Assembly (NCBI GenBank): GCA_010015805.1 | Contig: ML978139.1 | Span: 372,001 to 436,000 of the forward strand | Reading direction: 5' to 3' | Source: Rhizodiscina lignyota | Lineage: Eukaryota | DNA: 64,000 bases | Shown here: positions 14,364-30,470 of the stretch, piece by piece | Layout: every line of letters starts with the position of its first letter | How positions within the stretch are numbered: the first letter of the stretch is position 1 | Program-made: the position numbers and the translations under genes | Notes under the pieces: model-generated | The model's database searches: none | What the model saw: the letters and a program-made list of their open reading frames with translations, nothing else | Told to the model about the DNA's origin: nothing

Positions 14364-14625
14364 TACTTTAAGAACCACGACATGCCATCAGTCATAGAGG
14401 GTAGAGATTACAATGGATCTTTATACAATTCTGCTACAATACTCGCAAGTGAAAAACAAAAGAGGAGAGCGTTGCGAGATGATCACCGTAAACCCCCTGG
14501 AGCCGAAATCGGCAGTGGTCGGCCCCTCTCCTCAACACCAGCTGCCCAGACCGCAACTTTAACCCGATGGAGTCATATGCGGTCACTCAACGCAAAAATG
14601 TAACAATTCACCCGCAAAATCCATC

Positions 14626-15502
14626 ATGGGCGTCTTCTACGAGAAAATTCCATCCAGCCTCATCGACTGGATACTCCAACAGCATGTCTTCTGGGTGGCG
14701 ACCGCTCCACTCTCATCCAATGGGCACGTGAACGTCTCGCCGAAAGGCGGAAAGTGCTTCGGCATCCCAGATGACAGGACTTTTTGGTATATGGACATGA
14801 GCGGCAGTGGTAATGAGACTATTGCTCATCTCCATGAGCCGCGAAATGGCCGGATGACCATCTCGTTCTGCGCTTTTGATGGAGCACCAAAGATTGTTCG
14901 ACTGTGGGGAAAGGGTATGCGTCATAGGTCATATTATCCCGCAATGCGACCAAAATGCTGAGAATATCGCAGGCAGAGTCCTGGAGAGGGGAACAGCAGA
15001 ATACGACAACTTCGTCGCTGCGCATTCCGTTAATACACATGCCGGAACCCGCAGCATCATCGTCGAAGATATCCATCAAGTTGGCTCATCATGTGGGTTC
15101 AGCGTGCCGTACTTCGACTTCAAGGACTACCGACCAATCTTAAACAACCACTTCGAGAAGAAGGAGAGGAGTTATAAGGACGGCAACGAGAAGGAGAGTT
15201 TGGACCGATATTGGGCGTTCAAGAATGCTTGGAGCATGGATGGATTGCCCGGCATGCAAAGAGGCCTGGTCGTGGCCAAGCAGGACACGATTGCACCGAT
15301 TAAGAAAATGGTCGGACCTTTCGCGCCAAAGCGCTATCAAAATCCTTATGGTGGATTCACGTTGGAGCAGGTTTTGCTTCTGATGCTGGTGAGTTTCCTC
15401 TGCGGCGTGTTAGCCTTGTCGCTGGCACCACATGCAGTTGACCGGATCCACAATGCTGTTCCGGATCTGTCCAAGTTTACGATTCAGATGTCTTCGGCAT
15501 GA
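14626..15502 (+). CDS. Pyridoxamine 5'-phosphate oxidase-family FMN-binding split-barrel protein with a C-terminal hydrophobic segment, 2 exons
   Basis: Motifs FWVATAPLSSNGHVNVSPKG, GSGNETIAH, RMTISFCAFDGAPKIVRLWG and SSCGFSVPYF; intron 14915-14972. Confidence 0.9.
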
Positions 15503-15673
15503 TATGTCGTCTGTATCTAACTTGGTTGTCTGTTTCCTCATACGAGCGGCTGTGTCATAAAATATATGGCGACAAGGGCATGAGGAGTGCTCTTTAGACC
15601 ACATTCCGAAATAGTTCAGATAGTAAAGTCTGTCTCTTCATTGTGTACCCGGTAGTATTTGAATATATAAGCA

Positions 15674-16789
15674 TTAGCAGTCATTGATCTTGTTTCCTGC
15701 AAAGATCTGGGCCAGCTCTCCACATGCAATGCTGTAGTATTTCGCCACTACTGGTGAAAGTCGCAATGGATTTGGAGCTTTGTCGAAGGCATGCTGCACG
15801 TCCGGAATGCAATGGTATACGACCTCCTTGCCTTGCTCACTGACCAGTCGATCTCGGAACGTTTCAACTTCGGGACGAAGCATGTCGATTTCGCAACAGA
15901 GAATAACCATCTTCTTCGGCAGCGTCGCTAAAAAACAGCTAGGCGCTCTTCCTGGACTCACAAAAGGGTTCATGAGATCAACTGGTGGCTGGAGGTACGA
16001 CTCGTTGAACATTGTAGACATAAACTCCGGGACTGGATCCGTCGGCACAGCTTGTCGCTTCTGTTCTCGAGTAATCGAATAGTCGACGGTTGGATACCAC
16101 AGTATCATTCCGATGAAGTTGATTTGCTTCGATCGATCATCAGCTGGAAATCGCTGTCGGGCATCGTCTCGTTCTATAGCCTTGCCTCCTTTTAGCGGTG
16201 ATCCTGTCCCGGCCAACTCTTCTTGGAGACGCAGAGGGACAGTCACGGCAAGATTCCCACCGGATGAGAACCCGCCAGTCGCAACGCGGGCCAAGTCTAG
16301 ATTCAGTTCATCGGCGTGCGCAATGATCCAGAGAACGGCATCGCAACCATCTTCCATGGGGATCGGACAAGCTAGACAAAACTCAATTCAGAGGACACGA
16401 AAGCGCGTAGCTAAACTTACGATACTGAGGTGCTCTTCGGTAATCCACGTTAACCACTACAGCACCAGTCTTCTCGACGACGGCTTGGCACCATCGTGCA
16501 TCATCTCTCGCGCGTCCAAGGGTGAAGCCCCCGCCATGGAAGTGGACTAGCACAGAATACTTGTCCTGTTCAAGGCGCCCCTCTTCATACCCCACAGGCA
16601 CATAGAAGTAGAGGTCAATGTAGCCTTTGCGGGAAGACAGTGTGGTTCGGATCCTACGCGAAAACGAAGGTCCCGGTGGTCGAGGGGGGCAAGCCGACCT
16701 ATAAATAACAGGGCTGTTACTATAACCCTCCAGAAGTGCACCTGTAAGTAAACCCTAAGCAGCCATATTGGTTTTCGATTTTGAGCCAT
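15674..16789 (-). CDS. Alpha/beta hydrolase (HSL-like esterase, Abhydrolase_3) with an apparent 1-nt frameshift near 16684-16689
   Basis: HFHGGGF oxyanion motif, VDYRRAP, GFSSGG nucleophile elbow, D (EIDML) and H (HAFD). Intron 16420-16372. The N-terminal frame joins only if one base is added to the G6 run. Confidence 0.8.
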
Positions 16790-17772
16790 GACGATGAAAA
16801 AAGATCCAATATGCACGGACAGGGCAGCTGCACGAGGAGATAGAGAACTCGGATCGATAGAGAAATTGGCAAAGACAGACAAATAGAAACGGACCTCCCG
16901 TTAGTGGCTTTATACTCACGAAGTCAACATAGCGCCTGAGAAGGTATTGTGCTCGACCACGGACCCGTACCGATGCCCCGATCAAAGGATTCTGGTGATG
17001 CTTCAGACGCTCGCATTTCTCGGACAAAACGCGATGGCCTGGCGCTTGGTCCGTAGTGGACTGCTTGGCAATCGCCAGTGGTGCATCTCCGACGGATATG
17101 TGCGCATGTTATCTCCTTTGTCCTGCGTGAAGAGAGAAAGATTTAACGGTTACCGAAGTGAGGTTGGTCTCCTGAGAGAAATGGGATAAATATCCAAGTT
17201 GGGTATCTAACCTAATCTGGTCTAGTCATTTTCCAGAGGAGCCACAAAATTATCCTCTCCACCAACCCCCCCTAACTTTTGTATCATCTATACTCCGTAA
17301 ACAAGAAGTGAAATAAGTTCACAGCTTTCACATTAAATCTCCCTTTACGTAGTCAACGATACACCGGACCGCGTTCCCGAATGTCTGAAAACGCTTCTCT
17401 GCAGTCCGTTGCAAAAAAATTGGCGGATTTCGACGCTCCACTTTTCGACTCAATTGAGATGGCCAACGTCGCCATGTCCTGCGTGATGGAGGCTATCTCG
17501 GACATTCCAGAGGATGAATCACCATTTGAAGCCAGCGATGCGGTGGAAGCCTAACCGCCAAGCTTCTGACGATCTGACCGATGATGTCTTGTTCGGGCTC
17601 GATAATGACCCGATGAAATGAGACCGTCTTTTAGGCCCCTCTATTGCTTCAGTGGAAGTTCGAAATCTGAGCGATTGACGCTGATATCAACTCGTACTTC
17701 AATGCTCGTGAATCCCGACATCTCACATATCTCTTCTCGGCTTGTCTGTACGTCCAAGTGGAACCTTTCGAT

Positions 17773-19547
17773 ATGGCCTTTTCGACCAAGCTGTTTCTTA
17801 CACTACTAGCTCTTCCAGTTCTGTTGGTATTCACGCGTCTCTACAACCTTTTCCGCAATTACCTAGCCGCCCGAAAGATTGGTCTTCCAATCGTTATATC
17901 TCTGGAGTCATGGCAGGACCCTCTATGGATTTTCTTTGGATCATACGTTCGCAAATCACTGAGTGCCCTGGGGCTCTGGGACCGCTCTGAACCAGATTAC
18001 ACCACCATTGGGTGGCCGATTTACGATCGCTATGACTCCCACGCCAAATATGGCCCCGCATTTTCCATTGTTACGCCATTCAAGACAAATGTAATCGTCG
18101 CGGAAAACGAGGCGGCAAGGGAACTATTCAAGGAGTGGAGAGTATGGATAAAGAATAGAGAACTATACGCGATGATGGAAAGTTTCGGTAAGAACGTCAA
18201 CTCCGTCAATGGTGATGACTGGCGGAGGCATCGAAAAGTCACAGCGCCAGCATTCAAAGAGGCGAATTCGAAGCTTGTGTGGAATTCTGCGATGGAGCAG
18301 GCAAACGGCTTGTCGAAACGATGGAATGAGAATTCAAAGAAGAGTGGCGGCATCACACTGCGAGAGCTCAGGGGTGACGCGAACATTGTCGCAATGCACG
18401 TCCTTGCCGCCGCAACATTCAACATCAAGTACGATTTCGAAGGCGGCGTAGAGGTCAGTGAACCGGGCCACGAGATGAGCTACGGCGAAGCCATGAAGAC
18501 CATTGTTCACAACCTCTCGATGATGCTGGTTCCAATTATCTTCGGTCTAGCCAGGCTCGGAATTCCGAGTTGGATGATGCCCGCAGGGTTGAAGCGGCTC
18601 AAAGTCGCAGTTTTCGAAATACAAAATTATCTGGAAAGCTACGTTGCACAAGAACGGAAGCAATACCGAGAAGGTGGGGAGAGCAGGGATGATCTCATGA
18701 GCTCACTCGTTCGGGCCAACGAAGCAGAGAAGGAAAAGCTTGGAACGGAAAAGATGAAATGGGCGCTCAGTGACGAAGAACTCTATGGCAACCTCTTCAT
18801 GTTCAACCAAGCAGGCCATGAGACGACATCAAGCGCTCTGTCATATGCTATTCCATTTCTAGCCGCATATCCTGGGGTGCAGGAATGGATACGAGAGGAG
18901 GTTGATGCGATTTTCAGGAACGGCGATGTCCCCTACGCGGCCGCAATGCCACGCCTTGTCAGATGTGACGCACTTATGGTAAGTTTGATTCCTTCTTTGC
19001 CGTTAACAAGCCTCTCGACGCTGACTTTACAAAGTATGAAACTATCCGCTTCTTCTCCGCCGTTCCGATGCATCCAAAGTACACCGGCAATATCTCACAG
19101 GTTCTAAGTATTGCCGGCCACGATCACGTCATACCTGCGCACACGTTCGTCTCGATCAACTACTACGCCATCCATTTCAACCCTTCGACATGGGGCTCTG
19201 ATGTCAATGAGTTCCGGCCTTCTCGCTTCATCAAATCATCTTTGACTCCAGGCACTGAGACTTTTGCCATTCCGGAGAAAGCAGATTTTATTGGGTGGTC
19301 CTCTGGCCCAAGAGTTTGCCCGGGCAAGAAGTTCAGTCAGGTCGAGTTTGTTGCGACTATTGTGCGGCTGCTGAGGGAATTCGTGCTCAAGCCGGCCCAA
19401 CGAGCCGGAGAGAGTGAAGAAACTGCGGGGAAGAGGCTGGTAGAGGTCATGAGCGATGTTGAGCACTTCATCAGTGCCATGCCGAGGCATCCTGACGATG
19501 CAGGATTTGTTTGTATTAAGCGTGCACGTTGGACGGCCACCGAATGA
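17773..19547 (+). CDS. Cytochrome P450 monooxygenase, 2 exons
   Basis: N-terminal membrane anchor, WRRHRK, I-helix AGHETT, ETIR formed after intron 18979-19034, FRPSRF, and heme motif WSSGPRVCPG. Confidence 0.95.
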
Positions 19548-20297
19548 TCCTGATCTATCATTCGGCAGCAAATAGAGGACTGTTTCATAGACCCATCCAG
19601 TCCACCAAAATTGGTTCTAACATAGTACTGCGTGCCTAAAGACACTAAATAGAGACCTGTTACAAGGCACCACAAGTTAGACGGCATTTTCACTCATTGG
19701 CATCTCGGCCCGGCCCCAAGTCCAGGTGTAGGAACGGAAGGCATTTTCAATAAGGTACAAAATTAATTATACTAGATACAGGAAGTTGAGCAAATTCACC
19801 CAACAATTGCAACCACTAAAAGACTTGCTGATCATTCGCGCTGGGAAGCTCGCGATTGCACCCATCGCAGTGGTCATGCTCGACGTACGAAGAATGGAAC
19901 TCAATTCAACGCAACCTACACATGGATATCCGAGACACAATGCCAGAACTAACTGCTCCATTGTGTGATGACAAGACACAAGTTCAAACACTGGTTTGCA
20001 GCGCTCGGACTTAAGTGGCCCAATTTGCATGCCAAGGAGTGCTTCTTCGGAACGCTTCCGAAAAGCTTCATTTCACGAACGGACTTAAGAAGACATCCTC
20101 CATTATCAGTTCGAAAGCACTGAAATCATTTTTAACTATGAGTCAAATTACAGTAACTGCATTTCCTGCACCCGAACCTCAGACGTGGTATAAAGGCAGC
20201 GCTCTCCGATGGATTCTAATTGAAGCAAGAGGCATTGGTCATTTCTCTCAGCATCTTACGAAGTGTCAATTCAAGACTTACATAATAATTCTATATA

Positions 20298-21273
20298 ATG
20301 TCGTCTCTCGTCTGGCTCATTACAGGGTGCTCTTCTGGCTTTGGAGAGCAATTCGTCCGCAGCATACTCGCACGCGGAGACAAGATCATCGCAACTAGTC
20401 GGAAGCTTGAGAAGCTGAAGCACCTGGAGCAGGCCGGCGCTGCTGTTCTCCAACTTGATGTCACGGATAGTCAGGAGAACCTCCGCAACACGATTGCAAA
20501 AGCCATTTCCATCTATGGGAGGGTTGACGTGTTGGTCAACAATGCTGCATACATTGCGATCGGTACTTGGGAAGACCTTGAGTAAGAATTCCGCCGAGCT
20601 CTTGTGTTCCAGTTTTACTCACATCACGGTAGATACGAAGATTTTCTCGCTCAGTTCGAGACTAATGTTTTCGGAACGATCAAAGTGACTCGAGCACTCT
20701 TGCCGCATCTTCGGGACCGACGGACAGGGACAATCGTCTGCATTGGATCTCGTTCAGGCTGGAGCGGTGACCCTGGTGTCGGCGCATATTCTGGTACTAA
20801 GTTTGCACTTGAAGGTAAGCAACATTCAATATTTTGCCATGCTGGAGTGCGTCCGCTGATGCCATTTGTATGAAACAGGAATTGTCGAAAGCCTTTGGAG
20901 AGAAACCACTCCTCTGGGAATCAAGACTCTTCTAATTGAGCCCGGAAGATTCCGTACAAAGCTTCTCTCTGCCGAAAACCTGAAGGCAACTGTGTCCGCT
21001 ATTCCGGATTACGCGGATATGTCCAGAACTCTCATGGGGCACCTCGCTAGTGAGGATCAGGCCCAGCAAGGAGATCCGGTGAAGCACGTCGAGATTGTTT
21101 TGGATCTCGTACGACAAGAAGGAGTTGCATGTGATAAAGCGATTCCATTCCGACTTCCACTTGGTGTTGACAGCTTTGACGATATCAAGGCAAAATGTGA
21201 GGAGACACTGGAGCTGTTGAAGGAATGGGAGGCTGTGATCAGGAGTACAAATTATGAAGACAAAAATCAGTAA
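20298..21273 (+). CDS. Classical short-chain dehydrogenase/reductase, 3 exons
   Basis: Motifs TGCSSGFG, DVLVNNAA, catalytic YSGTK and IEPGRFRT; two short introns at ~20582-20632 and ~20815-20878. Confidence 0.92.
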
Positions 21274-21512
21274 ATGGACATACTCCAAATTCAATGATCA
21301 AATTTCCAAATCTCAGCCATCTCTCAGGTTCGTTACAGAAGTTAGAGGCAGATACATTAACAGTCTACATGCAAGTGCGTGATTGCAAGGCACGTTTAAG
21401 AGCTCCCTGTAAGAGAAATAGCGCGAAAAGATCACACAGCAAGAAAAAGTCATCCAATCTTCAGGCTCTCGGGTCACCTTTTTTCCCCAAATTGAACCGT
21501 CACGTCCTCTAC

Positions 21513-22103
21513 CTAGCTCGTCCTATTGAAAACGGCAGCCTCATCTACAACCCCACGAAACGCTTCCCTGTTCTCTACTTCTTTCATGAGACTCTGAAAC
21601 TCTTTATCACCTTCATCAGCCCTTTGCTTGAATGCCGCATAGTTCTTCTTGAGATATCCAACATCAGCCCCAGCCTTGGGACTGAGAAAGCCCTTCTCCG
21701 CAGACGCGACGATGCTGCCATGAATGAAAACGGCGCGAAGTCCTTGATCGCCTTTCGTGCCGACTATGGATGCCCATGCGGCGTGGATCTCCTCGATGAT
21801 CTCATAGAGCATTTCGTCTGTCCGACTGGGACCCCAACGGATTTGGCCAGAGATGCGGTTGGCCTTATTCTATGAATGAGGTTAGAATTCTCGAATTGAG
21901 CTGAGTGTTGGCATTGTTTCTATGAAACTTACGCGCATTCCAGCGCCATATGTCCATTCTGAAGAAATGTCCTTGATATTGATGTTCACAAAGAATCGTG
22001 GCACCGTAAACTTCTCGGTGTGGATCTTCGTGAGCGCTTCTGCGAGCTGGTTCTTCTGCTCAGCTGTTAGAGGGTAGCTGTGTTCGACAGTGTACATAGG
22101 CAT
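21513..22103 (-). CDS. Tautomerase-superfamily protein (cis-CaaD-like / putative oxalocrotonate tautomerase), 2 exons
   Basis: Met-Pro start MPMYTVEHSYPLTAEQKNQLAEALTKIHTEKFTVPRFFVNI. Intron 21932-21870 joins in frame to NKANRISGQIRW...EKGFLSPKAG. Confidence 0.85.
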
Positions 22104-22398
22104 TTTGATTGTCTTCAGAAATGAAATATGTTTAGAAATCCTGATGATGTCTGGATTACTGCAGCAAGATGCAATTCAAAACTGGTTAACTCTTCTTATG
22201 TCACACTTGGGAGTCCATCTACAAGTACAAGAGGGCGTGTTCACTAATCAGAATCAAGGTATTTAGTTATTGATCCTGCATAGGAAAGCAATTTGTGACA
22301 TTATTGATAAGCTCCGATGCTCAACTGCAAAAGTACTCCAAGGTTCAGTAACCTCGGGATTCAGTCGGGGTCAAAGTTACCGGCCAAATTTGGGCGAT

Positions 22399-23156
22399 TT
22401 AACGTAACTGGAACTCTTTTACATCAATTCTCCCTGCATTTCTCACAAAGTCTCCGCCCTTTATCCCGTGAAGTTATGCATCGCCCACGAACCAATGGTA
22501 CCATCCCTCTTGGTGTCGAAGAATAAATGGTACGTTTCCACCTTTCAATGCATACACTGTATACCAACCTGGGTCTTCTACGGTCCGAGCCCAAAAGCAG
22601 TCCGCCTCGCGTGTGAGAGATGTAAGTTGGAAGAGTGAGATGCCTCCCTGAGCCACTTGCTACTTTAATCGTTCCCACGACACAAGAATGTGCATAAATG
22701 GCGAGGACAACGCGGACCGCATTGGCCGTAAACGCACGATGAGTGTCCAATGATATCTTTTGGCAATTTCGTCCAATCGGATAAAGCGCTCTGTGCTAGC
22801 CGCTTTCTTGCCACAGTTCACAAGAACGATTCGAGCAAGGAGGGCCTCTTGAATAACCTATAGTCGTCCACACCAGGTCCAATTCATTAATTGTCGTATC
22901 ACGGACCATAAACCACATTCCAGATGGAGGTGTCCTTCTTCAAAGTTGATTGCATCGATCGAATTGATGAAACCCATGGCCATGCCGCTGTTATCAGCAC
23001 CTTCTCCTAGCCATATCCGTACAATTGCCGCTATCTGAGAGTTAGGAAGGATTGTGGAATGACTCGACTTGGAGACTGACCTCCAGCGTATATTCTTCCC
23101 ATCAATGGAACTTGGACTGATTTCTCAAAGTTGTCATGCTGATGGATGCAAACCAG
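22399..23156 (-). pseudogene. HET-domain (HET-6-like) pseudogene, 3' half
   Basis: Minus-strand translation: LVCIHQHDNFEKSVQVPLMGRIYA, intron, IVRIWLGE, WTWCGRL*VIQEALLAR..VNCG, then GGNVPFILR..FVGDA*LHGI..DVKEFQLR*. At least three internal stops and an apparent large internal deletion. Confidence 0.88.
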
Positions 23157-23519
23157 CGCTGTCCTACGGAAGCTTCTCTCAAATCATTAGACCCCTTAGC
23201 CCAATCTCCTATCCCTCAAATATCTTACTTTTTATAGGTCTAAGGTTTCATCACGTGTAGAGGCAGCCTTTGAATTCTAAGGCTTTCATTTAGCGCTAAG
23301 CCTAAGTTACACAACTTTATTAAACTAGTCATGCAGAGAAGAGATCTTAGACTAGGTGTCTATCAAGACTGTTACTTCAAACATTTCCAGTCTTTGCCAC
23401 CGCTGATGATCGCTCGCTTGGGTCAGCAGATTATCTATTTTGTCTCAGAAGAGCATCGCCCAAGAAGGTATCATGTTCGGTATGATCTTATTTTCAAGAG
23501 CTGTAGTCGCGGGTCGCCC

Positions 23520-25164
23520 TCAAAGCAACCACTCTCTGGGCTGTCCTAACGAATCCGGGACCTTCATCCTGTTCATTCGACCGTAGTGTAGTCGCAACCC
23601 AATTGCCCCTATGACAACACCAAAGCTGCAGGCTGCACAGGTGAAATTACCAGTAGGATATCCGGTCTTTGCCTCACTACTCTTCCATAACCAGACACAG
23701 ATGATATACCCAACACCAGACATAGCATTATTAATCCCAACGACAAGGCCAATCGATCTTACCGTGGGAGCGTTGCAAGTCACCCAGGCGGCCAGCGGAG
23801 AGGCGCTGGGAAAGGCACCACAAGTGGCAAGAATGAGACAGCCATATCGCTTGGCGTAGGCATCAGCGGGCAGAATCCCGGCGGTGAGGAAGCCGATACC
23901 GCCAATAGTGCTTGCTGCAGCGACATGCCAGCCGCGCGCATTGAAATGATCGGATGACCAGGCAATAAATAGTGAGAACACCCAGCCAATTACCCAAGGC
24001 GGAACGGTCATGAGTTGAGCTTTGATCGAAGTGTAGCCAAGACCATTGACGATAGTGGGAGCGAAGTATGCTAGCGAGCCCAGAGGGATGATGTCGAGAA
24101 GCTGTTGACAAGAGTCAGCTGCTTAGAAAGGGTGAAGTTCCTTCTCCTTAGACTTACAAAGGTAATGTAGTGGAATGGCATGCGCGAGAGAATCGTTTCG
24201 AGCCGTTCTTGCCTGGTGGTGTGCTCTTGAGTGTAACCGCCTCCATACTCTTGCAGCCGCTCTTCCGCAAAGCGTTTCTCATCTTCATTTAGCCACTTTG
24301 CTCTCGCCGGCCAATCCGGGACTGTGAAGACAATCAGGCACGCCGCGGCGACCGTGATGCAGCCCTCGATGATAAAGAGCCAGCGAAAGCCTTCCAACCC
24401 ACCGCTCCCATTCAGGTGCCCTACCCCATATGCAATGCAACCGCCAAAGGCTCCGGCTAGGGTGGCGGAGGCATTCACTATGGCGATTCGGAGGGATCGT
24501 TCCTCAGGGCGGTACCAGAATGTGATAAGGAATATAATGCCTAGCGATTCAATCAATTTAGTCCGTGTCACGTGAGGAGAGAAAAGGTACTGTACCAGGA
24601 AAGAAGCCGGCTTCAAACATGCCGATGATGAAACGAAGCCCAGTCACGGTCCCAAAATTATGGACCCATGCGAAGCCTAAAGTCAAGAGTCCCCAGCCGA
24701 AGGCCAAGAACGCCAGCCAGCGCGAGGGCCGAACGTAGCGCTTCATAACTAAATTCGACGGTATATCAAAGAGACCGTACGCGATACCAAAGACCGTCAA
24801 AGCCACAGAATATTGATGAGCAGACATGCGAGTCTTCTGGAGTATATCATCGCCTGTCTCTGAATTGAGAACCTTTGCATTTCCAATGTTTCCTCGATCC
24901 ACTAAAATTTAAGTTCGAAATCAGTAAGTCCCAGACCCGAATGCATGGGATGAGGAGGGAAGCCATACAAAAATTTAGAAGGTAGATAGTAGCACATAAT
25001 GGCAGCAAGCGAATGTCAACCTTTCGAAGGTATCGTTTCGTACGAAGGGTATGCTCTACTCTGCCTTCCTCCGACTCTTGGATATATGCATCCTCCTTCG
25101 GGGAGTCAGAGACCGTCTCGTGGTAGGCAGGTTGCTCGTCAGCAGTGAAGTCGGTCTTCTCCAT
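23520..25164 (-). CDS. MFS transporter, anion:cation symporter family (allantoate/nicotinate permease-like), 4 exons, intact
   Basis: Motifs KVDIRLLP, LDRGNIGNAK, EAGFFPG..TFWY, GLEGFRWLFIIEG and AQLMTVPPW. Introns 24968-24902, 24595-24541 and 24157-24102 all splice in frame. Confidence 0.93.
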
Positions 25165-25315
25165 GATCAGAAATAGATGATGCAAGAAGCAACAATGTAC
25201 GTCTGGAAAGCAGTTGAGCACAGAAGAGCGAGGGATTCAAAGGGATCTTCGACATGAAGACGCAGATATAAGGCGCCTCGGTAGTACCTGACCAAGTGAG
25301 ACTTCGCCGCTAGAC

Positions 25316-25420
25316 GGGGGGGAAGGAAGAGGAGGGAGGAGGAAGGGGGATGGGTAGGACGGGGAGAATGGCGGAGGATGGGGGGTTTTCTGGGGAGAAT
25401 GGCGGAGCTTCGGGGAAGGG
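25316..25420 (+). repeat. G/purine-rich tract with a duplicated GGGGAGAATGGCGGAG
   Basis: Many runs of three or more G; 16-bp direct repeat at 25361-25376 and 25392-25407. Confidence 0.8.
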
Positions 25421-25986
25421 CTTACTTGCTACTACGTACGAGCCTTCATAACGTATATATGAATTTAAAATTAGACATTTTTATGGCCAACAATTGTTGG
25501 TTCTATGATGTTTTAAAATGGTCAATTTTGGTAGGGGAAGGGGGTACGAATAGGGAGTATTCGTAGGACAGCGGGTAGAAGACCGATGATAGAGAAGGCG
25601 CCACAACGATTGGGTCGGCGGAAGAGAAGCGAGTCAAGAAGGGCGCCGGAGCTAACGACAGAAACACCGGCACGTAGGGTACGATCCTTCAGAAGCTTGA
25701 GCATCTTTGACTTGGTCTTCTTAGTCCTCGCGTGCACCGCGAAGGAGTGTAAGCCGGGCGGCGGATCGCAGGGTCCTTTTCGTTAAGTAGTTCGTTGATA
25801 GGCACCAGGATTCGAGTTATGTCAGGAGGTGCCCAGAACGTCCTAGCGCGTGAGCACGTGAATTTGTGTATTATAGGATTCTCCGCCTTCAGGAGTATAG
25901 TGACGATACCACCGATTTTAGCGGCGAATACCTTCGTTTCAGGCGGCACTATCTTCGAAGTTAACTTGACTATACGCATCTTATAC

Positions 25987-26344
25987 CTACCCATACCGAA
26001 TAGATAGAATCATTCCGTAGATATCTTAGGGCAAGCTCTAAGCTCTTATTAACAGGAATGGTAATATTATTCGCTACAATATTGTCGGACAAGTCAGGCG
26101 GTCCCTAGCAATAGGATAATAATTGTAGTGTTCTACTTATACGGAAAGACTTAAGCTTGCAAACAATTATATCGTCAAACTCTCCTAGCAGTATTTCAAG
26201 AACTCGTATGCGATTGTCCGCGAGAGGACAAGTAGAATAGAGATTGTTTTGTCGTGAATCATGTGGCGTTGATGACAGCCTGCCCCTTTTCCCGACATGT
26301 CCACAGCTTAGGCATGTGATCTTCACTTCGCTTGAAACCTGCAT
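25987..26344 (-). pseudogene. HET-domain pseudogene, 5' half
   Basis: LYSTCPLADNRIRVLEILLGEFDDIIVCKL...LSYC*GPPD...IPVNKSLELALRYLR..YSVWV, which stops abruptly at the WVD motif. The start position is approximate. Confidence 0.88.
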
Positions 26345-27005
26345 AGTTCCCAATGTGCACGTTAAAAGACGAGGCTACTCTAAGTAATTCTATGTGAATA
26401 GATACATCTCGGCCCCCAATTCAGTGTCACGTTATGTAACTCTTAGCATAGAGCAGTGAGAAGCGAGGCTGCAAGGAGACCGAGCTGAAAAGGAGCTATC
26501 GTATGACAGGGGCCAGTAATTATCGCGTCGACAAATATCTTGGCTCATTGCCTGAACCCAGCCGCTCTAGACTGGCACAGGGCTGCAAGCTGATGATTTT
26601 TCAAGTTATCCAGCTTTGCCTAGACTAGCTCATCATCACTGCAACGCCTACGCTGGAGATAATCCCTCTACAGACGACAAAGGCCACAGACACAAACAAC
26701 TGAGGTTCAGAAGCCTGATTGATCACTACCAATAAAAGCTTTTGCTTGCCGCCACCAATACTCGGCTATGGAGATCTGCAGCTGCAGCTTTGCCCGAAGG
26801 CATTTCCCAGAAACGTCTCTGCGCCATCTGCGGGCTATCATGATGATGACATCGCTTACAGTCTCTTGATTCATCATAGAGATTAGCATTCAGTTCTCTG
26901 AATATGAGCCTTCTCTTGGCATCCGAATCGCACTCGGGCAGAGAGCCACGAAGACCCTCCTTCCCGCAAGAGCAAATAGAATATCATCATCTTATTCGAA
27001 GCGTG

Positions 27006-27935
27006 TTACATTATGTACACTAATGCTGATAGAATCCCACAGCTGTATGCGAGTAAAGAGTTTGCAACATTCTGAATGGCACCATTGGGCGTGGGCACCA
27101 CTGTTGTCGTTAGAGCCGTAACATCAGGTCGTTTGGTTGCCGATGTAGTCGTGATGCGTACTTCCGAAGATGTGGAAATCGGTGAACTCTGTGTTGACGC
27201 GGGATTCGATACCTCGCCAATGGCAGCGCATGGAGAGTAGATTGCAGAACCAGTTGTCGCAGTTCCTATGATGGAAACCGAGTAGTAATCAGGACTGTTG
27301 GTCTTGTACCAACTCATGCAGTCGGCCCAGAGGTTATCGTAGTGGGTTGGAGCAAACACGGTTGAGCTCGCATGTGTAGTATAGCACAAGCAGCCCGCTT
27401 GCTTGGAAAAGGGAGCGAGTGCGCCATTGAGACCAGTCTTGAAGTCGACAGGGTCTTCAGCAGCACATGAGGTGTATATTGAAAACCAAGGAGAACATGC
27501 AGAGCTTTCATCGATTCCGCTTGCCACGGCTGAGGGATTGGACGAGGGATTTCGGGTCTTTGGAAGGTCGTGACTCCTACAAGGGGCTCTGACAGGACCA
27601 TCTGGAGCAATGGTAGAATATGCAGCTGGATCTGCGGTTTTCAGATATTCCAAGCAAGTCCACAGGGCATTATCATACGGATCTGGAGCGAAAGTGGTGC
27701 TGGAGTAACAATAACATAAAATGGCAGACGCGCCCGGTAAGTCAAGAAAACCGGGAGTCGCAGAGGTACAAGCGGTAACAATATTGAAGAGCGGATCGCA
27801 AGACGTGGAGCCGGACGTGTCCTGTCGACGTTCAAGATCTTGGAGCGGATGCGCAGTTATGGGGAATGGCGAATACTCTCCATTCATGGAGCTGGCGGAA
27901 AGTAGCGAGAGGGTGAGGGATCGCGGGAGAGACAT
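27006..27935 (-). CDS. Secreted Cys-rich protein with two repeats, a Thr-rich linker and a GPI-like C-terminus
   Basis: Hydrophobic N-terminus, ERRQ putative Kex2 site, two copies of a Cys-patterned unit (..C(Y/L)CY..T.FAP..YDN....C..Y.KT..P..YS) and a hydrophobic tail. Confidence 0.75.
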   Translation of the reverse strand: MSLPRSLTLSLLSASSMNGEYSPFPITAHPLQDLERRQDTSGSTSCDPLFNIVTACTSATPGFLDLPGASAILCYCYSSTTFAPDPYDNALWTCLEYLKTADPAAYSTIAPDGPVRAPCRSHDLPKTRNPSSNPSAVASGIDESSACSPWFSIYTSCAAEDPVDFKTGLNGALAPFSKQAGCLCYTTHASSTVFAPTHYDNLWADCMSWYKTNSPDYYSVSIIGTATTGSAIYSPCAAIGEVSNPASTQSSPISTSSEVRITTTSATKRPDVTALTTTVVPTPNGAIQNVANSLLAYSCGILSALVYIM

Positions 27936-28456
27936 TGCGACAGGAACAGCGACATCCAACAGAGAAGGAAATCTTTTTCGCCCGACCTACCTTTGTTTTA
28001 AGTACCTGAAAGAACAAGCAAGATGGAAGGCTGGAAGGGTAGATGCACCTTTTCGGGTGTTCAAGAAATGGGCTTGTGATGCTTCCCGAAGGAAAAGCTG
28101 ATTCGGCCAACTTAGCCACCACACTTCGGTTGCAAAACGCCACAGTAAAGATTGGCCAAATGAGGCTGAGTCCAGACCAATCTGCGTAGTAACATGTCTT
28201 TCTGGATATGATGAGGGCATAGCAGCCTTGCGCGCAGCCTGATTCTGACCGAAAGCCAAGAAACGGCCGCATACTTGTATCACCGTCTGGGACTCAGCCA
28301 GACCGTATGCCAGAAACGTACAATCAGTGGCGCACTTAAATTTCCAGGAGCTCCTGAGGCTGTAGGTATCGCACCGTCGATCTCCTTCTCACCTGCGCTC
28401 TCGAATTTTCGTCAGTTTGTTTGTCTGCTTTTCATCAGTTCGTCTTCCTTGCCACG

Positions 28457-30470
28457 ATGAATTCTACAACACTTGCACTTGCCATTTATACGGGATTCTG
28501 GCATGATCACATGGAAAATGGTGCTTACGGTTGGAAGTTGACACTGAGCATCAGATGGAGCAACGTTTTACTAGCTGCATTAGCTACATTCATCGGCTTT
28601 GCTGGATCCGGCTTCTGGTCTTTACTTGCCTTTGGCATTCATCAATGGCAAGCAAAAATAGACGATGCAGATCTATTGCATTTTCAACACCAGGCCATCT
28701 ACCGTAATTCAAGTTCTTCAATTGACGCTTTGACGAATCTTCTCAAGATCTGTTGGGTGTGGAGAGCACACAATGGGAGACAACGGCCCCATCATCTTAG
28801 ACGCCGATCATTCTGCCTATCGATTCCACCCATTCTCGTTTTTAGTGGGTTTACAGTTGCTGGTATATTTGTTGCGGATATCACCCGACCGACATATCAA
28901 GGCAACAATGTCATACTTCAACCTTCCAATTGTGGGATTGTAAATCTAAGCGGAAACTCAACCGGATCACAGCCAATTGATAGCACATTACTGTCGAAAC
29001 ATTTCAACGATACAATGGCAGCTCGAGCGTATGCAAGAAGTTGCTACGGTGCTACGACAACATCAACATCGTGCAGCCTCTTTCCTCAACATGATCTTCC
29101 ATTCACGACATCAAATGTGAAATGTCCCTTTGGAGAGTATATAAAAGGAGGGTCCCTCTGCAGTGTGGATTCGGCAATCATGTTAGACTCTGGTCTGTTG
29201 AATACGAACAAACATCTTGGAATAAATGCATCGCCAAAAAATCAGCTATTGTTTAGAAGAACGGCCTCATGTTCGCCGATTCATTCTAATAGCTACGCTA
29301 AGATCAGCGGTGCAAAAGATTCTTCCGGATATGCCGTCTATGAATATGATTTTGGATCATTTCAGCCTTACAATTGGACGTACCTTTATAACTCGCATGC
29401 TTCAGCAGATGGCATTACTTACCACATCGAGTGAGTCTTGAATTCCTTCAAAATGAGAATATTCTGATGATTTGTACAGAGCCATCGCGAGTGTCGACGG
29501 TCCTGGTTCGGGTTGGGATCCAATTCCTCCGTTGAAGGTTCTAAACGCCGATGTTGGACTTTTCTTGCTCGCATCCAATGCTGTCTCATACCTTACTCCC
29601 GTCAAAGATCCATGGTTCTCAGCAACAACACTTGATAACCTTTCCGATCCTGGTTCGATCAAGAAGGTTTACAAAGCTGATTCGTACATTAGCGCCCTCG
29701 CTTGTGTAGATCAGTATCAAATTTGCAACCCAAACTCCGCGCCAATGTCCTGTACCATTCTGGGTAGCATGAAAGATATGTACGAGACATTTCCACATAT
29801 CACATCCAACAATTATCAGAATGCAACAGCACTTCGTATACTATCGAGCTTATCGATCAGTTCACTTTCATCCATCGTCCAGTACATGGGACAATCCTGG
29901 CTTTATGCACAAGATCGAGTATCATTTCTAATAGTTTCGGATCTTCCATCGAATCAATGGCAGATTGAAGTTCAAGGATGGTTTGAAACATCTCTTGCTC
30001 AAGTCCAGGCTTTGGAATTCTCGTATCCAAATCAACCTACACAGCTTGCTGAGGGCGACATTGTACATCCGAATGCTACATTGAGCGGTCTCGACAAAGC
30101 AGCTGAAGTACTATGTTCAAACCAACGGGCCAGGAACATTGATGCTTATCAATCCTTCTCCGCACTAGGCCTCATTATTATCATTGTCCTTGGGCTTTTA
30201 ATTATTATCCTTTCCCTGACGGTGGCAGATTGTGTCACCGCATTCCGGAGGAGAAGGAAGGTACAGGAAGGCAAAGCGGATTATCGAGAAATTGCTTTCG
30301 TAGCGGACTATACACTTCAGCTTCAACGTATGGCGCTTATGGCAACTAACCATCAATCGAAATGGGAAGGGTTGATGAGCAATGTACCGTATACAACAGA
30401 TCCAACCGCGAAGTTTTCGGGTCCGACGAGAGTCGTCAGCGATACAAGTGAGGACTTTAGATATATATGA
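28457..30470 (+). CDS. Uncharacterised fungal multi-pass membrane protein with a large Cys-containing extracellular region, 2 exons
   Basis: IYTGFWHD..GWKLTL..LLAALATFIG, ARAYARSCY, LACVDQYQICNP, LPSNQWQIEVQGWF and YQSFSALGLIIIIVLG; intron 29431-29479. Confidence 0.85.

Follow-up and report, generated by a model that had tools for sequence, protein, structure and literature searches.

A HET pseudogene of Rhizodiscina lignyota split in its core motif by a 2.8-kb segment that carries an intact MFS transporter gene

How does a complete transporter gene, with its introns and its upstream region, come to lie in the middle of the core motif of another gene? The question is raised by a locus of the fungus Rhizodiscina lignyota contained in a stretch of 64,000 nucleotides (assembly GCA_010015805.1, contig ML978139.1, positions 372,001 to 436,000), which is called the window below and whose own numbering is used throughout. 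On its minus strand, two collinear pieces of a cell-death gene of the HET family (26344-25987 and 23158-22399) flank a segment of 2828 nt (25986-23159), and this segment holds a gene for an MFS transporter. A first-pass annotation of the locus, made from the letters alone, had seen here one HET gene cut by a small gene-capturing element, with the MFS gene as its mobilised cargo. The halves of the HET gene are confirmed by the present analysis, while the element is not. The locus is read here, by preference, as a legible example of insertional gene relocation that landed in the HET core motif.

One HET gene in two pieces

The two pieces and the segment between them are arranged as follows.

25987-26344, minus strand: 5′ piece of the HET pseudogene; 119 codons and one further base, the first of the joint codon; premature TAG at 26107-26105
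23159-25986, minus strand: inserted segment; 2828 nt, first dinucleotide GT, last AG, not present at the same point in relatives
22399-23158, minus strand: 3′ piece of the HET pseudogene; last two bases of the joint codon (CG), then a 24-codon exon (23156-23085), an intron, and 210 codons

Translation of the 5′ piece (26344-25988) gives 119 residues that end in ALRYLRNDSIYSVWV and are followed by a single G at 25987. On the same strand, the 3′ piece picks up at 23156 with LVCIHQHDNFEKSVQVPLMGRIYA, so that the coordinates and residues of both pieces are as originally described. Within the 3′ piece, a 50-nt intron with GT..AG borders (23080-23031) is followed by a reading frame that runs on to the natural stop at 22401-22399. 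This small intron is conserved, with gaps of about 46-53 nt found by tblastn at the same place in related metagenome loci. The Pfam HET profile (PF06985) is matched by the 5′ piece over positions 4-52 (E 0.013, 16.2 bits, below the 22.5-bit cutoff) and by the 24-aa exon of the 3′ piece over positions 55-77 (E 1.3e-4, 22.8 bits, just above the cutoff); the pieces are therefore collinear and in register. The third HET piece, which lies after the 50-nt intron, has no Pfam match at E<=1.

More detail comes from relatives. The reference set consists of 80 fungal metagenome loci of the same HET sub-family, scanned with protein P0086, the sole word-index relative of the 3′ piece (45% identity); the locus of P0086 itself was not recovered in this set, where its best match has 56% identity. 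The tblastn searches give matches to the 5′ piece at E<=1e-3 in 10 of the 80 loci, and four loci that are among the best (L003, L004, L006, and L002) match all three HET pieces. Both halves thus match the same relatives rather than different HET paralogs, an outcome that would have spoken against the initial reading. Where the 5′ match ends in L003, L004, and L006, only 6 nt follow before the match to the 3′ exon starts at its residue 2; these 6 nt accommodate just the Asp codon and one more codon, and no intron at the joint. The DNA of these three loci is uninterrupted there and reads W-[AV]-D-A-I-C-I-N-Q. In the whole set, the intact core motif is found in 55 matches distributed over 51 loci, these being uninterrupted by construction. 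Finally, a profile built from seven relatives recognizes in the read-through of both pieces, where X stands for the joint codon and the stop, one domain (102.4 bits, profile positions 15-144) that is ungapped at the joint; the same profile gives 65.3 and 27.7 bits with the separate halves. As judged by these comparisons of sequence, the two pieces are halves of one HET gene split in register within its core motif, and that an insertion took place is nearly certain.

The joint codon deserves attention. Excision of 25986-23159 preserves the frame and gives W-V-A-L-V-C-I-H-Q, where the joint codon, composed of G and CG, encodes Ala. The HET family has Asp at this place, and the restored sequence accordingly departs from the core W-x-D-x-x-C-I-N-Q. 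In this respect the first-pass annotation needs correction: the two nucleotides it took to be missing at the joint are present as CG (23158-23157), the insert spans 25986-23159, and the motif reads W-V-A rather than W-V-D.

The HET gene is also damaged elsewhere, which the first-pass annotation had overlooked. It contains four premature stops (26107-26105, 22860-22858, 22662-22660, and 22476-22474), of which the first two are TAG at positions where relatives have Trp, the first being the W of SYxWG. Moreover, it is about 359 codons short, in frame: residues 167-538 of P0086 are faced by only 39 nt (22596-22558). On the reading of its open frame, the HET gene is a pseudogene; together with the insert and the Asp-to-Ala joint, its lesions number at least six. 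Because there are five or more other lesions, together with Ala at the joint, the insertion cannot be called the killer of the gene, which may have been dead already before the insertion took place. From the four stops in 355 codons, the neutral change accumulated after the loss of constraint would be put, very roughly, at about 0.09 per site.

Repeat-induced point mutation was considered as the source of the two TGG-to-TAG stops and dropped, as the dinucleotide indices carry no clear signal (TA/AT 0.94 and (CA+TG)/(AC+GT) 1.14 for the 5′ piece; 0.58 and 1.31, respectively, for the 3′ piece).

Several traits of this gene and its sub-family were noted in passing. At the deletion scar (about 22596-22558), where about 1.1 kb has been lost in frame, both sides share one frame. 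About 500 residues past the HET domain, the members of the sub-family (P0086 and L001-L007) are conserved in a C-terminal block (...GGNVPFILR...HGI..G.FVRNA...). The index tag on P0086 is PF26639, and a Pfam search of this protein gave only the HET profile, positions 79-146; the P0086 model begins right after the conserved intron, hence without the first half of the HET domain.

With the outer gene described, one rival explanation can be weighed at once, namely, that the HET gene has here a spliceosomal intron of unusual size, the whole 2.8 kb, with another gene nested in it. The segment does have GT...AG ends, its removal keeps the frame, and a CTAAT motif resembling a branch site can be recognized by eye about 28 nt before the terminal AG. 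Nested intronic genes known from other systems likewise place a same-strand gene between two coding pieces within GT...AG bounds. Unlike them, the present case has relatives without an intron at the joint, as seen both from the 6-nt spacing in the three loci and from the 55 uninterrupted motifs, and its outer gene is a pseudogene with four stops and a large deletion. The proposed acceptor has several AGs ahead of it and lacks a pyrimidine tract, and the spliced product would have Ala for the core Asp. All this makes an intron extremely improbable.

The transporter gene in the insert

The inserted segment itself can be divided into the following features.

23520-25164, minus strand: intact MFS gene of 488 aa; exons 25164-24969, 24901-24596, 24540-24158, and 24101-23520
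24968-24902, 24595-24541, and 24157-24102, minus strand: the three introns of the MFS gene (67, 55, and 56 nt), all GT..AG
25165-25819, minus strand: unique region upstream of the MFS gene, presumed promoter and 5′ untranslated region, without a recognisable coding remnant
23159-23519, minus strand: 3′ flank of the MFS gene, part of the inserted segment
25820-25880, no strand assigned: short dispersed repeat, 106-167 nt inside the 5′ junction
25562-25573, no strand assigned: a perfect inverted repeat of 12 nt, inner arm; the MFS start codon follows 409 nt downstream
23157-23168, no strand assigned: outer arm of the same repeat, abutting the 3′ junction and overlapping it by 2 nt

A complete four-exon MFS gene with its upstream region had been proposed from the outset, and this part of the description stands. 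Within the insert, the coding sequence is preceded by 822 nt and followed by 361 nt, and the eight open reading frames (ORFs) of these flanks give no Pfam match at E<=0.1 and no coding remnant. The MFS_1 profile of Pfam (PF07690) is matched by the exon-2 piece with 45.3 bits (cutoff 33.4) and by the exon-4 piece with 22.7 bits. The 488-aa product aligns nearly over its full length to fungal MFS proteins of 452-504 aa, with 54-62% identity, and retains 109 of the 116 positions that are at least 95% conserved among 57 homologues; in departures at such near-invariant positions, of which the median homologue has one, it ranks sixth of 58. The gene is thus seen to be intact and constrained, and it is presumably expressed from its own promoter. 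Since the introns and flanks are retained, the segment arrived as DNA and not as a retrocopy, as the first reading had supposed.

As to the kind of transporter, some of the matches carry source names such as "related to tartrate transporter" and "MFS transporter prlL", and the protein contains a stretch L-D-R-G-N-I-G-N-A, which we take to be typical of the anion:cation symporter (ACS) subfamily. On the strength of these names and this stretch, the protein would be anion:cation-symporter-like.

In composition, the MFS gene resembles its surroundings. Its G+C content at third codon positions (GC3) is 0.564, compared with 0.402-0.717 in 22 ORFs of the window, and its codon adaptation index is 0.817, at the low end of the range of 0.816-0.874 for the same 22 ORFs, which also serve as the reference set for the index.

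The public record of the gene should be mentioned as well. No identical MFS protein of at least 351 aa is among the matches in the protein index, while the homocitrate synthase ORF of the window is 100% identical to an indexed Rhizodiscina lignyota protein. As the index contains the homocitrate synthase and an MFS paralogue of this species and not the present MFS protein, there is possibly a gap in public annotation; the gene may be missing, shortened, or mis-modelled in the public protein set.

Junctions, dispersed repeat and the route of arrival

Before any mechanism is considered, it should be asked whether the arrangement exists as assembled. The assembly was checked with Logan contigs of the one public sequencing run that contains the stretch, which is possibly the source of the window, so that the check is a re-assembly rather than independent data. 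In that run, a contig of 68.8 kb spans 21000-25848, including the 3′ junction, unbranched and without differences, and a contig of 82.6 kb spans 25848-28000, including the 5′ junction, again without differences. Both junctions are thus bridged, and a failure to span them, which the first-pass annotation had named as a sign of misassembly, is not what is found. It also follows from the unbranched contig that no identical second copy of the MFS segment is seen in that run; nor does the run contain a contig joint that skips the insert.

The suspicion of an assembly chimera joined at the repeat 25820-25855 has some basis, as contig 1 ends and contig 8 starts at 25848 and at least five other contigs share a core of 31-36 nt. 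However, each HET junction lies deep within its long contig, and a false join would require the accidental reunion of two exactly complementary same-strand halves. A chimera is therefore hardly credible.

The repeat itself is of interest. Word depth is 1300 at 25820-25855 and 1093 at 25826-25880 (a version with two differences from the window), compared with 151 in the flanking contigs. Five other contigs part from the window sharply at 25818-25820, on the MFS side. The repeat is apparently the end of a dispersed element with about eight copies, and it may be a transposon end. Within the window, no further copy of the 36-nt core is present. Folding of the DNA of 25810-25995 is no better than that of shuffled sequences (z -0.11), with no hairpin typical of miniature elements, and no short repeats bounding a small element are found in 25500-26100. 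The 5-nt sequence AGTTA occurs on both sides of 25820-25957, which is compatible with chance (about 17%, an estimate). The region 25574-25986 has just two 22-nt matches in the metagenome loci (E 0.064). Rfam yields nothing at E<=1 for 21000-28000, and a tRNA search of the window found nothing.

At its ends, the insert reads GTATAAG... and ...GGACAG on the minus strand, or CT...AC on the plus strand, with G/C as flanking bases. The bases preceding the two junctions share only the dinucleotide AG, and the target has been altered by no more than 2 nt. No terminal inverted repeats linking the two insert ends, no frame-compatible target-site duplication at the junctions, and no Helitron ends there (5′-TC...CTRR-3′ with an A/T insertion site) were found. 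Mobile-element proteins were searched for with Pfam among the stop-to-stop ORFs that reach 110 aa; of these 131 ORFs the search covered 120, the remainder being five that lie within the MFS gene and, at 49.5-52.8 kb, six that overlap. The scanned ORFs contain no transposase, reverse transcriptase, or DUF3435 domain, and PF11917, the DUF3435 profile of a captain, gives no match at E<=1e-4 in them and none in the ORFs of the insert flanks. In a comparison of 22000-27000 with the window, no part of the region recurs except for an 18-nt chance match. The proposal that a host gene was mobilised as cargo by a small gene-capturing element is not borne out by these searches.

The sequence GTAGG, present at the 5′ junction and also 4 nt inside the 3′ junction, was considered as a target duplication or a recombination core and rejected, as the HET frame would then be 5 nt off.

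What remains most plausible is that end joining at a double-strand break took in a captured or relocated chromosomal fragment, in a one-off insertional relocation and not by transposition. We favour this explanation and give it about an even chance of being right. It is preferred because none of the transposon hallmarks looked for was found, the target is nearly untouched, the insert looks composite, with a repeat-derived piece beside unique DNA, and its composition is host-like. A double-strand break would have occurred within the HET coding sequence, inside the codon for the core Asp, and a free or relocated genomic fragment of 2.8 kb, probably from the same genome, would have been trapped during end joining in a single event. 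The fragment would have comprised the complete MFS gene, its own upstream and downstream regions, and, at one end, part of a dispersed repeat. The MFS gene has remained under constraint, and the HET gene is today a dead relic.

Several observations weigh against end-joining capture. First, an insert that begins with GT and ends with AG in frame is expected by chance about once in 256 cases, and end joining does not account for it. Second, the outer arm of the 12-nt inverted repeat lies right on the 3′ junction, a coincidence estimated at about 1 in 100. Third, a sharp-edged repeat of about eight copies near the 5′ junction hints at the involvement of a mobile element. Fourth, with about 0.09 changes per site, a short target-site duplication could have been blurred. 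Fifth, the closest MFS proteins in an index of 5.8 billion sequences have at most 62-63% identity, which leaves room for a foreign source, and in a quick maximum-likelihood tree the MFS protein stands alone, on an end branch of 0.94 (median 0.27) and without a supported sister. Finally, the locus is known from one genome.

The second, third, and fourth of these points are also what can be said for a small non-autonomous mobile element which either is the segment or has moved it. Two versions of this idea can be formulated. In one, the repeat of about eight copies, with the sharp boundary at 25818-25820 common to five other contigs, would be the conserved end of the element and the MFS gene its cargo or a transduced flank. 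In the other, the 12-nt inverted repeats (25573-25562 and 23168-23157), which are perfect and bracket the MFS gene with its upstream region, would serve as surrogate ends. The loss of a short target-site duplication by decay after insertion could be reconciled with both versions, judging from the four stops in 355 codons. Against the first version, the repeat lies inside the junction and not at it, and its unique side is turned toward the MFS gene; against the second, the inner arm stops 413 nt short of the 5′ junction and hence does not bound the insert. Both versions face the lack of terminal inverted repeats, target-site duplication, Helitron ends, and a miniature-element hairpin, as well as the absence of a transposase or captain from the scanned ORFs and of a second copy from the window. 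A mobile element is, in our opinion, unlikely. Perfect 12-mer inverted repeats occur twice in the 6-kb region, where chance would give about one such pair, so that their number is near the chance level; as a speculation, the one considered here might have been left behind by snap-back or template-switch synthesis in the course of repair.

A broader version of the same idea would make the insert a member of a family of small captain-less gene-carrying insertions that home to W-x-D-x-x-C-I-N-Q and disarm cell-death genes on landing. In such a family, 25986-25820 would be a shared "head" with 25818-25820 as its conserved inner border, the cargo beyond it differing from copy to copy, and the coding sequence of W-x-D-x-x-C-I-N-Q would be a target that a filamentous ascomycete offers in many paralogous copies. 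We consider this reading highly unlikely.

The fifth point bears on another possibility, that the fragment was acquired horizontally from a different species and inserted where the HET gene had been broken. No index protein exceeds about 62% identity to the MFS protein, proteins of other classes come as close to it as does the host's own paralogue (P0017, 58%), and the long unplaced branch, seen in the quick tree only, would suit a foreign gene. On the other hand, GC, GC3, and codon usage are within the host range, and the MFS introns (55-67 nt) are of the same order as the neighbouring HET intron (50 nt). The host lineage is sparsely sampled, so that a best identity of about 60% is not unusual, and no donor has been identified. 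Horizontal origin is thus rated as quite unlikely.

Returning to end-joining capture, it is useful to compare the locus with known systems. DNA capture at breaks is an established idea, and so is gene relocation in fungi. An example of genomic and retrotransposon DNA captured at breaks is provided by a published report (PMC4516963). The present insert is similar to such filler DNA and insertional translocations in having no transposase, terminal repeats, or target duplication, in sharing 2 nt at its junctions, in changing the target by no more than 2 nt, and in being composite. It differs from them in that a complete constrained gene was captured together with its promoter region and has become fixed in a fungal chromosome. 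Here, the scar is all from which the mechanism is deduced.

Host genes are also carried by several kinds of transposable elements. Pack-MULEs have long terminal inverted repeats and 9-bp duplications, and Helitrons have 5′-TC...CTRR-3′ ends, a 3′ hairpin, and insertion between A and T; the cargo of both usually consists of gene fragments, not of a whole working gene with a promoter. The present locus resembles their captures in that a host gene lies within an inserted segment, but neither type of ends is present. In filamentous ascomycetes, the giant Starships of Pezizomycotina are another example of host genes travelling as DNA cargo. As outlined in a preprint that describes, among other things, four of them of 76,706-195,340 bp, they have a tyrosine-recombinase captain with a DUF3435 domain at the 5′ end, flanking target-site duplications, and often terminal inverted repeats (10.1101/2021.12.13.472469). 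Unlike Starships so described, the insert is only 2.8 kb in size, with no captain in the scanned ORFs of the window and no such ends.

If end-joining capture is true, the locus is a legible scar of a whole fungal gene, with introns and promoter, relocated without any transposon. Such relocation is often invoked to explain the assembly of gene neighbourhoods in fungi and is rarely seen with both junctions legible. It would also represent one more route of gene loss in the HET family, which is large and turns over fast. In the titles and abstract openings of the literature searched for HET pseudogenes with insertions, no such case was found, and a search of the literature on the species likewise yielded nothing on the locus. 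A single case in one genome, without an empty site or a donor, is a curiosity and not a new principle; only the family of motif-homing insertions, unlikely as it is, would alter that.

Surroundings of the locus

The window is gene-dense fungal DNA with about 50% G+C. The Pfam families found in it include RTA1, a Zn-cluster factor, RabGAP, alpha/beta hydrolase, P450, MatE, POT, thiolase, SDR, RasGEF, NmrA, and homocitrate synthase.

The region adjoining the HET pseudogene (14563-22175) contains a series of genes of small-molecule metabolism, with a PNPOx-like gene, an alpha/beta hydrolase, a cytochrome P450, and a Tautomerase_3 gene with two exons (22110-21513). On the other side, at 28358-30467, there are two long plus-strand ORFs (358 and 337 aa) with GC3 of about 0.40-0.42 and no Pfam family at E<=0.01.

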